A stretch of 64,000 nt of DNA from Bradymonadia bacterium (GTDB lineage: Bacteria > Myxococcota_A > Bradymonadia > UBA7976 > UBA1532): the NCBI GenBank assembly GCA_046290225.1, contig JBKAGE010000035.1:1-64000 (forward strand), given 5' to 3'. The position numbers and the translations under genes were made by a program. How positions within the stretch are numbered: the stretch's first letter is position 1; every line of letters starts with the position of its first letter. Under the pieces are notes generated by a model. It made no database searches. It was not told the origin of the DNA and saw only the letters and a program-made list of their open reading frames with translations. Of the stretch, positions 39,982 through 42,300 are shown piece after piece.

Positions 39982-41313
39982 CAATGGCGCGGGAGACCCC
40001 TTCCTTTAGGGAGAGGATGGATAGCGCCGCTCCAAGTTGGTGAGTGGTGCAAGCCCTCTATACAGAGAACGAATGAGCAGGTAAATTAGGCAGGTGGACA
40101 TCAAGCGCGCATACCGATTCAGGTTCTACCCTGGCGACGAGCAGGCGAAGCAGCTTGCCCAGACGTTTGGGTGTGTGCGTTTCGTCTATAACTGGGCACT
40201 CAGGCTACGCAGTGACGCCTGGAAGCATCACCAAGAGAGCATCAGCTACGGCCAGTCCTCCGCAGCCCTCACGGCCCTCAAGAAGATCCCAGAGTATGCG
40301 TGGCTCAAAGACGTGAGCAGCGTGCCCTTGCAGCAGACGCTGCGCCATCTCAACACAGCCTTTGGCAACTTCTTCTCCAAGCGGGGGCGTTATCCGAGCT
40401 TCAAGCGCAAGCACGGGCCTCAACCAGCAGAGTACACCCCCAGCGCCTTCAAGTGGGATGGTCAAACCCTCAAGCTCGCCAAGATGAAGCATCCCCTCGA
40501 TGTTCGGTGGTCGCGTCAAGTGCCCAAGGGCGCTCGGGTAACCACGGTGACCGTCTCCAGAGACGCCGCGGGGCGCTATTTCGTGTCCATGCTCGTCGAC
40601 GACGCCGTAGCACCCTTGCCCAAAGTGAAGGGCCAAGTAGGCATCGACCTGGGGCTGACACACTTCGCCACGCTGTCTACTGGCGAGAAGGTGGACCCCG
40701 CCAACGTATTGAGAAAGCACGAGAAGAAGCTGGCTCGCCTACAGCGACTGTTGGCCAGGAAAAAGAAGGGCTCGAGCAACCGAGCGAAAGCCCGCACCAA
40801 GGTTGCCCGCTTACATGCCCGCATCGCAGACATACGCAGGGACTTCCTGCATCAACTCTCTACTCGGCTCGTGCGCGAGAACCAAGTGATTGCCGTGGAG
40901 AGCTTGTCTGTGAGCAACATGTTGCGCAACCACAGGCTCGCCAAATCAATCGCCGACGCCAGCTGGTCGGAATTCTTGAGACAGCTTCAATACAAATGCC
41001 TGTGGTACGGGCGCACCCTCGTTGCCATCGACCGCTGGTTGCCCTCCAGCAAGCGATGCTCAGAGTGTGGTTATACCCACAAGAAGATGCCGCTCCATGT
41101 CCGGTCTTGGCAGTGCTCCGAATGCGGCGCCGCCCACGACCGCGACATAAACGCAGCACGCAACGTTTTGGCCGCCGGGCTGGCGGTTTCTGCCTGTGGA
41201 GAGTCTGTAAGACCCATCTGCGCTTCCGCGTAGGGAGGCACGGCTTGTTGAAGCAGGAAGCTCCCCGAAGTGACTCGGGGAATCCCCGTCCTTTAGGGCG
41301 GGGAGGATGTCAA
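39982..41313 (+). mobile_element. IS200/IS605-family element, TnpB only (IS1341-like, non-autonomous)
   Basis: Left end: TCAT|CAATGGCGCGG-GAGA-CCCCTTCCTTTAGGGAGAGG; right end: GAAT-CCCCGTCCTTTAGGGCGGGG-AGGATG-TCAA; no tnpA between the ends. Confidence 0.9.
40094..41233 (+). CDS. tnpB: RNA-guided endonuclease TnpB
   Basis: RAYRFRFYP..TFGCVRFVYN; RuvC GIDLG / IAVESL / DRDINAA all present; Zn finger CSEC..CSEC. Confidence 0.97.
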   Translation: MDIKRAYRFRFYPGDEQAKQLAQTFGCVRFVYNWALRLRSDAWKHHQESISYGQSSAALTALKKIPEYAWLKDVSSVPLQQTLRHLNTAFGNFFSKRGRYPSFKRKHGPQPAEYTPSAFKWDGQTLKLAKMKHPLDVRWSRQVPKGARVTTVTVSRDAAGRYFVSMLVDDAVAPLPKVKGQVGIDLGLTHFATLSTGEKVDPANVLRKHEKKLARLQRLLARKKKGSSNRAKARTKVARLHARIADIRRDFLHQLSTRLVRENQVIAVESLSVSNMLRNHRLAKSIADASWSEFLRQLQYKCLWYGRTLVAIDRWLPSSKRCSECGYTHKKMPLHVRSWQCSECGAAHDRDINAARNVLAAGLAVSACGESVRPICASA

Positions 41314-41330
41314 TTGAGATGTTGTGACTC
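41130..41330 (+). ncRNA. TnpB omegaRNA (reRNA) scaffold with guide starting at 41314; 5' boundary approximate
   Basis: Right-end motif GAAGCAGGAA..GGAATCCCCGTCCTTTAGGGCGGGGAGGATGTCAA; by the established TnpB mechanism the guide is the flank ttgagatgttgtgactc. Confidence 0.65.
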
Positions 41331-41394
41331 TGGCCAGTGGAGCCGACGAGAGCAAGGCCTGAGGGGCCCGGGCACACCGCCCCATCATCTACGT

Positions 41395-41435
41395 CAAAAA
41401 AACCCCTTTCACCCTTCGAACAGGCATGCTAGACA
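41395..41435 (+). promoter_or_regulatory. Putative sigma70-type promoter for the msr-msd RNA
   Basis: A-tract 41396-41402, TTCACC 41408-41413, 16-nt spacer, TG-n-TAGACA 41427-41435; predicted +1 near the start of the 5' arm. Confidence 0.4.
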
Positions 41436-41442
41436 CCTGTAC

Positions 41443-41696
41443 AGCTCTTTGAAGGCAGTCCAGGTCTAGCCATCTGGGCGGCGTTGCGCCGTCCTGGAGA
41501 ATGCTTGGTCATGCCACACGAGGAAGGCTATTTCAGAATGTCTCTGATCCCCGTCGCGCACTACTCGTCGGGGCGTCCTGAGGCAACTCCGCCAATCGCT
41601 GTTACGCACCCGACGAGTAGTGCGCGACGGGGGAGAATTCAGTGAGCCTTCCACGTCCCAGGTCTTGAAGTAGCGATTTGCTGCCCTTCGAGAGCT
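41443..41696 (+). ncRNA. Retron msr-msd non-coding RNA, Mx162/Sa163-like, with no adjacent RT
   Basis: Outer arms 41443-41468 / 41671-41696; unpaired G41469 in AGCC; msr hairpin GGGCGGCG-TTG-CGCCGTCC; msd rod 41522-41652 with 24-bp perfect core 41549-41572/41609-41632; motif resemblance to Mx162 is from memory. Confidence 0.75.
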
Positions 41697-41730
41697 TGCC
41701 CAGCGCCGACTCAATCAGCACATGGGCATT

Positions 41731-41777
41731 TACGAAGCCGCTTTAGAGTTCACACTCCGAAGCGGCTTTTGTGTATT
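41731..41777 (+). terminator. Intrinsic terminator downstream of msr-msd
   Basis: Stem AAGCCGCTT / AAGCGGCTT followed by TTGTGTATT. Confidence 0.65.
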
Positions 41778-41835
41778 ACGGCTGCGAACATGCCCACATG
41801 GGCACTCCCAGAACAGCGGCCGGAGATCACCCACC

Positions 41836-42300
41836 ATGCATGACGACGACCAGCAGCTCTGCGCCGGGCCCCCAGAGGGCGAGACCGGTCGAGTGCTCGC
41901 CCTCGACATCGGCGAGCGCACCATGGGCATGGCCATCAGCGACGAGCAGCGCATCATCGCCCAGGGCCTCGACACCATCCGGCGCACTCGCATGGACAAA
42001 GATCTCGCCGCCCTCGCCGAGGTCATCCGTGAGCACGAGATCGTGCGCATCGTCGTCGGATGGCCTCTGCGGCTCAACGGCAAGCCCGGCATTCAGACCC
42101 AGAAGGTGGCCAAAGTGGCAGCCGCCATCGAAGCGCGCTTCGGGTTGCCCATCGACCGATGGGACGAGCGCCTCACCACCGTCGCCGCCCAGCGGGCCCT
42201 CATCGAAGGGAACGTGCGTCGGGAGAAGCGACGGCAGGTGGTGGACAAGGTGGCCGCCACCCTGATCTTGCAGGGCTACCTCGAAAGGCGCAGCACGTGA
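41836..42300 (+). CDS. ruvX: Holliday junction resolvase-like / pre-16S rRNA nuclease RuvX (YqgF)
   Basis: RVLALDIGERTMGMAISD, IVVGWP, WDERLTT, VDKVAATLILQGYL. Confidence 0.95.
   Translation: MHDDDQQLCAGPPEGETGRVLALDIGERTMGMAISDEQRIIAQGLDTIRRTRMDKDLAALAEVIREHEIVRIVVGWPLRLNGKPGIQTQKVAKVAAAIEARFGLPIDRWDERLTTVAAQRALIEGNVRREKRRQVVDKVAATLILQGYLERRST

Follow-up and report, generated by a model that had tools for sequence, protein, structure and literature searches.

The 64,000-nucleotide (nt) stretch of DNA analysed here (the window) comprises positions 1–64,000 of contig C35 (JBKAGE010000035.1) in the 8.58-Mb genome of a Bradymonadia bacterium (G000), and positions 41443–41696 of its + strand hold a stand-alone retron RNA gene of the msr-msd type. 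The best reading of this element is a naturally split type XIII retron, in which the gene for the noncoding RNA (ncRNA) lies apart from the gene for the reverse transcriptase (RT). We consider it likely that the RNA is functional and that it is served in trans by one of two type XIII RTs encoded on another contig of the same genome, the B-type RT. The element is a member of a conserved RNA family that is read on the + strand, and it has the anatomy of a retron msr-msd, namely outer arms, a TAGC motif with its G, an msr stem-loop and a long msd rod. Its parts are as follows.

41443–41468, + strand: a2 (5') arm of the outer stem, the 3' end of which (CUA) pairs with UAG at 41671–41673; it covaries in 11 copies.
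41469, + strand: candidate priming (branch) G41469, inside TAGC (context TCTAGCC), directly after the closing CUA/UAG helix and opposite G41670.
41476–41494, + strand: conserved msr hairpin, DNA GGGCGGCG-TTG-CGCCGTCC, RNA GGGCGGCG-UUG-CGCCGUCC; helix 1 of the class alignment.
41518–41656, + strand: long rod, the msd template, 139 nt, whose 24-bp core is perfectly paired (CCCCGTCGCGCACTACTCGTCGGG with its complement).
41657–41670, + strand: conserved single-stranded 3' segment CCCAGGUCUUGAAG, with CCCAGGT nearly invariant among the aligned copies.
41671–41696, + strand: a1 (3') arm of the outer stem, which pairs with 41443–41468 and covaries.

A preliminary description of this DNA, made from the sequence alone, had reported the arms, an unpaired G41469 opposite G41670, the hairpin and a rod with a 24-bp core, and all of these are present in the sequence where it placed them. 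Retrons most often have their priming G within a conserved TAGC motif, at the stem's inner end (PMC6868368), and the general retron model in that review would make G41670 the first templated base. The msr hairpin is presumed to be the RT recognition element. The rod consists of a conserved foot (ACRAGGAAGGCU / AGCCUUCCNUGU), a hypervariable stem of 24–27 bp and a conserved apical part. When folded, the 254 nt reached −134.4 kcal/mol, compared with a mean of −93.2 ± 4.85 kcal/mol for 200 dinucleotide shuffles, none of which was as good (z = −8.49). The opposite strand folds about equally well (z = −8.95) because the rod is a palindrome.

The RNA family was delimited with a covariance model (R1) built from an 11-copy alignment of stand-alone copies only, with zero RT-linked RNAs included. 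Among the 28 genomes of the family (27 besides G000), R1 found copies in 9; the order yielded 11 carriers among 31 genomes and the class 22 among 113. BLAST detected homologues in 8 of the 27 other genomes of the family. The strand was assigned as + because the forward scores of 150–262 bits lie far above the reverse scores of only 24–37 bits. Compensatory changes were present in 42 of the 69 pairs predicted in the 11-copy alignment, outer-arm pairs included. A class-wide covariation test on 21 copies and 58 pairs, with slid-partner controls and 500 shuffles judged by five measures, gave 93.0% of cells paired versus 34.9–47.6% with slid partners; 40 of the 58 pairs were altered on both sides, and none of the 500 shuffles attained any of the five measures. 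The seven pairs of the msr hairpin (helix 1) were paired in 100% of the 21 copies, with double changes in two of them, and the variable msd stem (helix 4) had double changes in 27 of 27 pairs. TAGC occupies the candidate priming position in 19 of the 21 aligned copies. When the outer arms of 27 stacked copies were compared, cognate arms formed duplexes with a mean of −27.1 kcal/mol and non-cognate combinations averaged −16.4 kcal/mol; in 14 of the 27, the best partner was the arm of the same copy.

A second copy in the same genome lies at C35:465051–465304 (BLAST identity 90%; R1 score 242 bits). The two copies differ in 22 inner columns, 18 of which form nine double changes, and nine of the nine pairs are canonical. 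Stem pairs that differ between the copies are all compensated, and these preserved stems argue against decay, as the preliminary description had maintained. Between copies of the family, the conserved parts are identical or nearly so and the msd stems are replaced wholesale while staying perfectly paired; this block replacement points to a stem under diversifying pressure. The second copy (L041 1501–1754) is flanked by a CN-hydrolase gene and an outer-membrane protein (OMP) gene; its conserved parts equal those of the window copy, and the 18-bp msd core and both arms are swapped with pairing kept. Tandem arrays of two to three RNA genes, each with its own msd stem, were seen at L044 1121–2017 (G018) and L133 2968–3561 (Nannocystis exedens), and further ones at L147, L105, L154, L079 1501–1960, L166 and L161. 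The third tandem copy of G018 directly follows the second and has no promoter-like element of its own.

Two other identities were considered for the element. A search of the whole window against Rfam 15 at gathering thresholds returned no match, and around the element at E ≤ 10 it returned no retron match, only microRNA-like hits on the palindromic rod and weak matches that belong to the neighbouring TnpB. Known RNAs, 6S-like ones included, were ruled out on the absence of an Rfam match. A miniature inverted-repeat transposable element or other repeat was ruled out by the presence of only two copies in the genome and by the retention of the family across the class.

The RT genes of the genome lie elsewhere. 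PF00078 (RVT_1) had no match in the window, where the preliminary description had likewise found no RT, or on contig C35; in the whole 8.58-Mb genome it had two matches, both on contig C79. Both RTs are RT_XIII according to PADLOC, and both carry the YADD, NAxxH and VTG motifs. System A (A-type) is arranged HEAT – SWIM – cis ncRNA – RT, with an RT of 540 amino acids (aa) and ncRNA arms of 33 nt. System B (B-type) is arranged HEAT/ARM (PDLC02921) – HEAT/ARM (PDLC02919) – SWIM – RT, with an RT of 453 aa, the PDLC02921 gene at C79:189805–193005 and a SWIM stop codon that overlaps the RT start. The type XIII protein set (clade-10 RT, SWIM/DEDE and HEAT/ARM) is complete on C79, outside the window (PADLOC E-values: RT_XIII 1.6e-170, SWIM_XIII 1.1e-179, HEAT-ARM_XIII PDLC02919 0).

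When the two RTs were checked for an msr-msd of their own, as the preliminary description had proposed, one of them, the B-type, had no ncRNA. R1 had no match in C79:172000–196000 besides System A's own RNA, and a search for a relic ncRNA upstream of System B (C79:186000–196000) with filters off gave a best R1 score of 9.5 bits. At 24 B-type loci annotated by tblastn, the RTs share 52–67% identity with RT_B versus 41–48% with RT_A, and SWIM and RT genes abut (≤15 nt) in 19 of the 24. The fetched flanks (≤8 kb, shorter at contig ends) of 23 of these loci contained no R1 match above 16.8 bits; the sole B-type locus with a match there is G010, where it lies 0.9 kb downstream of the RT. A retron has been defined as 'an RT and a contiguous ncRNA gene' (PMC7736814), and such contiguity of the stand-alone RNA was found neither in the window nor on contig C35, at 23 of the 24 B-type loci, in N. 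exedens or in Minicystis rosea.

A third RT_XIII lineage, about equidistant from the A and B types, was observed at L061 (G016:C11), L063 (G017:C15) and L220 (M. rosea, 15.28 Mb). In G016 and G017 the gap between its SWIM and RT genes measures roughly 740–870 nt and holds no R1 match; its ncRNA, if any, is therefore of another kind. No SWIM match was seen at the M. rosea locus. The PDLC02921-type HEAT/ARM protein is about 1060–1085 aa long, and two of the three f3 proteins scanned contain a BRCT domain. At the f3 loci (L089 10274–13450, L091 3874–7053 and L093 11885–15142), the PDLC02921-type gene is the one nearest to the RNA gene.

R1 also matched cis ncRNAs, at 33.6–67.6 bits: 10 of the 12 A-type type XIII loci have such a match immediately upstream of the RT gene (G000, G007, G011, G012, G020, N. 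exedens, G044, G045, G074 and G078). The cis RNA of G000 scored 39.7 bits (E = 2.6e-6) and that of N. exedens 57.7 bits; R1 did not detect a cis RNA at the A-type loci of G018 or G063. In six annotated A-type loci the match sits between the SWIM and RT genes. These matches and the covarying anatomy bear out the retron ncRNA layout recognised in the preliminary description, and the resemblance to retron models for which it had proposed a search is found with R1, which matches cis retron RNAs, and not with Rfam 15.

The stand-alone RNA and the B-type RT occur together. Of the class genomes that encode a B-type RT, 19 of 22 carry the RNA, versus 3 of the 91 that lack one; these counts come from related genomes, and their independence is overstated. 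Together with the ncRNA-less B-type operon, this co-occurrence supports the earlier suggestion of a split retron working in trans, an activity that we infer. The three carriers without a B-type RT are G020, with a copy that lacks the rod, G041, and G077, with a weak match of 49 bits. In G041, HEAT_B lies on the RNA's contig, which ends before SWIM and RT. The G020 copy (L051 1262–1442, G020:C495) is 181 nt long without its central rod, which may reflect decay or an assembly error; that genome is 80% complete, and only an A-type RT was detected in it.

These data also bear on the possibility that the A-type RT, and not the B-type RT, uses the stand-alone RNAs as additional templates. In G000, the stand-alone RNA and the A-type cis ncRNA share a nearly identical msr hairpin stem, and R1 cross-detects the A-type cis RNAs, as this explanation would have it; the hairpin loops, however, differ (UUG in the stand-alone RNA versus GAU in the A-type cis RNA). 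Moreover, stand-alone copies are absent from all five class genomes in which an A-type RT occurs without a B-type one (four of the five have a weak cis match beside the RT), and five genomes (G010, G043, G064, G076 and G094) have the RNA and no A-type RT at E ≤ 1e-80, the cut-off of the class search. We therefore consider service by the A-type RT alone unlikely.

The distance between the RNA and the RT that would serve it varies from kilobases to megabases. In G000, the RNA (C35) and the RTs (C79) are on separate contigs; were these directly adjoining, the distance would still be at least about 129 kb. In G029 they share a contig at a distance of 100 kb, and in two Pirellulaceae genomes the RNA lies about 12–13 kb from the RT, assuming that the numbered contig is the named contig. 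In G041, G043 and G056, which belong to another family, the RNA adjoins the PDLC02921 HEAT/ARM gene, 5–8 kb upstream of HEAT_B (PDLC02919-like), and contig ends cut off SWIM and RT near the RNA. N. exedens DSM 71 has, on a single 11.27-Mb contig, a tandem pair (C1:9284885–9285478; 188.7 and 198.2 bits) at 9.285 Mb and the B-type RT at 3.663 Mb, 5.6 Mb apart; RT_XIII genes are located at 3.66 and 7.17 Mb, the nearest being 2.1 Mb from the pair. The complete genome of M. rosea has the RNA at 2.751 Mb and RTs at 0.877 and 15.278 Mb, with the nearest RT 1.9 Mb off.

The family extends beyond the class. A pattern scan of species genomes gave 99 stretches, and R1 was run on 71 of the 80 listed; 54 of the 71 were true matches, at 89–263 bits, and the remaining 17 proved to be chance pattern matches. 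A tandem pair occurs in each of the four Nannocystis species among the hosts of the stretches listed, which also include Minicystis, Byssovorax and many metagenome-assembled genomes of Polyangia, Myxococcales and Nannocystaceae; 19 of the loci are labelled Planctomycetota, at 89–195 bits (L111, L127–L130, L139, L142, L145, L150–L153, L159, L161, L165, L166, L168, L171 and L177). RT_B orthologues were found in four of five Planctomycetota genomes checked, at 63–67% identity, which is as similar as within the myxobacterial class. This occurrence suggests inter-phylum transfer or strong conservation.

Signals that could make the RNA gene a transcription unit of its own flank the element on both sides.

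41407–41435, + strand: promoter-like pair, with −35 TTTCAC at 41407–41412, a 17-nt spacer and −10 TAGACA at 41430–41435; read by eye.
41734–41774, + strand: terminator-like hairpin between the RNA gene and ruvX, formed by GAAGCCGCUU, a 16-nt loop and AAGCGGCUU, followed by UUUUGUGU; read by eye.

Most stand-alone copies have the form cTTGnnn, about 17–19 nt and TAnnnn, ending about 7 nt before the 5' arm, and a GC-rich hairpin with a T-run follows shortly past the 3' arm in at least 15 of the 27 stacked copies. These sequence patterns are consistent with a transcript whose start, near 41442, coincides with the beginning of the 5' arm, and with an RNA gene that has its own promoter and terminator.

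Public sequencing runs were available as assembled contigs only, in which starts, ends, strand and level are unreadable and uncovered parts carry no meaning; none of the runs contains half or more of the sampled words. Metatranscriptome contigs of 181–296 nt cover relatives of the element in three of three runs. RNA libraries can contain DNA, and this cover is a weak hint that relatives of the element are expressed. One metatranscriptome contig of run X1 (296 nt, depth 16.5) matches the conserved ends (window 41461–41666), and its middle part, 138 nt long against 135 nt in the element, has another sequence; it derives from a relative with another msd stem.

The genes on either side of the element are as follows.

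41836–42300, + strand: ruvX, the next gene, an unrelated housekeeping neighbour (Pfam RuvX, E = 1.9e-43), as named in the preliminary description.
40094–41324, + strand: TnpB gene at 40094–41233 and a probable omega-RNA region at 41193–41324 (Pfam OrfB_IS605, Cas12f1-like TNB and HTH_OrfB_IS605).

Region 41193–41324 has sub-threshold Rfam matches to HgcC, sot0042 and RAGATH-18, which probably mark the TnpB omega-RNA, and a piece of it (41279–41313) was found again in four of four metagenome runs. This IS605-family insertion with TnpB just upstream is no part of the retron RNA; other genes flank the second copy of the RNA in this genome. A synteny comparison found homologues of TnpB, YceG, CN-hydrolase and the OMP beside none of the other stand-alone loci.

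A mechanism can be proposed from these elements. A σ70-like promoter would start a + strand transcript near 41442, and the terminator hairpin would stop it near 41774, before ruvX. Pairing of the arms 41443–41468 and 41671–41696 would place G41469 at the inner end of the stem, and the B-type RT from the C79 operon would bind the msr hairpin at 41476–41494 in trans. The RT would then prime at the 2'-OH of G41469 and start copying at G41670, moving leftwards through the rod as far as its foot near 41518. The predicted product is a hairpin multicopy single-stranded DNA (msDNA) of about 153–160 nt, as estimated from the structure, a size below the 165–170 nt given in the preliminary description. 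This msDNA may act jointly with the SWIM and HEAT/ARM proteins, and the second copy at C35:465051–465304, with its other msd stem, would yield a second msDNA from the same enzyme.

Several observations weigh against service by the B-type RT in trans. The near identity of the msr hairpins means that the A-type RT of G000 could use the stand-alone RNA too, and the pairing of the RNA with the B-type RT rests on co-occurrence in related, non-independent genomes. Three genomes with a B-type RT (G009, G028 and G042, 89–91% complete) gave no stand-alone RNA even with a more sensitive search. In 5 of the 24 B-type loci the SWIM–RT spacing is about 55–280 nt, which leaves room for a small unrecognised element. 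Rfam offers no retron match, and strict consensus scans of 41250–41900 for σ70 promoters and terminators returned none of either; the terminator scan missed the hairpin at 41734–41774 because its loop exceeds the scan's 8-nt limit.

The stand-alone copies could instead be retrotransposed or duplicated relics of retron RNAs with no present function. The repeats of retron-Nex1 (Ne160) in N. exedens have been read as the outcome of duplication and insertion by a distant RT, a reading that the review attributes to Lampson and Rice 1997 (PMC6868368). Copies at non-syntenic sites in different genomes, the tandem arrays and the rodless copy of G020 are in line with such an origin. However, the 5' arm, the priming-G motif and the msr, which lie outside the msDNA, are all present in the copies, and promoter- and terminator-like elements accompany these. 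The compensatory changes extend across the class, into Planctomycetota-labelled genomes and to every differing stem pair of the two G000 copies, and the B-type operon has no other ncRNA. A collection of relics is thus an improbable account of the family. A domesticated structured RNA that works without reverse transcription, as a protein-binding or regulatory small RNA, with B-type proteins that work without msDNA, would suit type XIII retrons, which are described as vertically inherited in myxobacteria and for which a cellular role besides defence has been proposed (PMC7736814), but it is a little less probable still, as the arms, TAGC with its G and the segment at the predicted template start are all conserved, the B-type RT retains YADD, NAxxH and VTG, and the co-occurrence of the RNA with that RT is left unexplained.

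A naturally split type XIII retron accordingly remains our preferred reading of the element, and a conserved, self-contained RNA gene far from its enzyme suggests that a whole retron subtype may naturally exist in unlinked parts. Tentatively, we extend this to a joint proposal that we regard as possible and less secure than the reading of the single element: a type XIII subtype of Polyangia-type myxobacteria and Planctomycetota would be constitutively split, its msd stem would be a diversifying specificity module, and one enzyme would make several msDNAs. One HEAT-HEAT-SWIM-RT operon would then serve one to three free-standing ncRNA genes per genome, tandem or dispersed and up to megabases away.

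Type XIII retrons, namely Mxa1 (Mx162), Sau1 (Sa163), Mxa2 (Mx65) and Nex2 (Ne144), are described with a contiguous ncRNA (PMC7736814). The present system resembles them in its RT_XIII, SWIM/DEDE and HEAT/ARM proteins, and in the long arms, msr hairpin and long msd rod of an RNA whose homology to theirs is detected by R1. It differs in the position of that RNA: the known ncRNA lies directly upstream of the RT, whereas here it is on another contig from the RT, and in N. exedens and Minicystis the stand-alone RNA is megabases from it. The review gives CAGC as the motif around the priming G of Mx162 and Sa163 (PMC6868368), compared with TAGC here, and R1 scores 34–68 bits against cis RNAs versus 150–262 bits among stand-alone copies. 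The nearest relatives of the element are the Nannocystis stand-alone copies, and not Mx162/Sa163, to which the preliminary description had likened it.

Among those relatives, retron-Nex1 (Ne160) is reported to comprise several msr-msd repeats, formed by duplication, that have no RT less than a kilobase away (PMC6868368, which cites Lampson and Rice 1997). Our element is like it in that tandem msr-msd copies without a nearby RT also form the pair in N. exedens DSM 71, and in that a predicted msDNA of about 153–160 nt fits the name Ne160; the tandem pair is probably the Ne160 locus. The account of retron-Nex1 in the review (PMC6868368) differs in giving no link to an ncRNA-less HEAT-HEAT-SWIM-RT operon, and in including neither promoters or terminators of the copies' own nor a reach into Planctomycetota. 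In the literature searched, which leaves subscription-only papers (including the 1997 and 2002 Nannocystis papers) outside its scope, one sentence in the 2019 review mentions the split arrangement, and no account was found of the ncRNA-less operon link, a stand-alone promoter or terminator, conservation in two phyla or msd block replacement. A 2026 SPIRE survey limited its search to 10 kb around each RT (PMC13712802).

If the split reading is true, surveys that seek an RT with a contiguous ncRNA would miss such RNA genes, and the nearly 30-year-old puzzle of the N. exedens msr-msd repeats without an RT would be explained. The system would likewise be a natural example of one RT with several templates, and a naturally trans-acting RT/ncRNA pair would be on offer for retron engineering. 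A retron RT can use separately expressed RNA in engineered retron editing. In one such case, the RT and Cas9 are expressed in trans to a fusion of the retron with a single-guide RNA (PMC6868368). Engineered split retrons and the element described here are alike in that RNA and RT come from separate units; the former are laboratory constructs, whereas the latter would be a natural, conserved arrangement.
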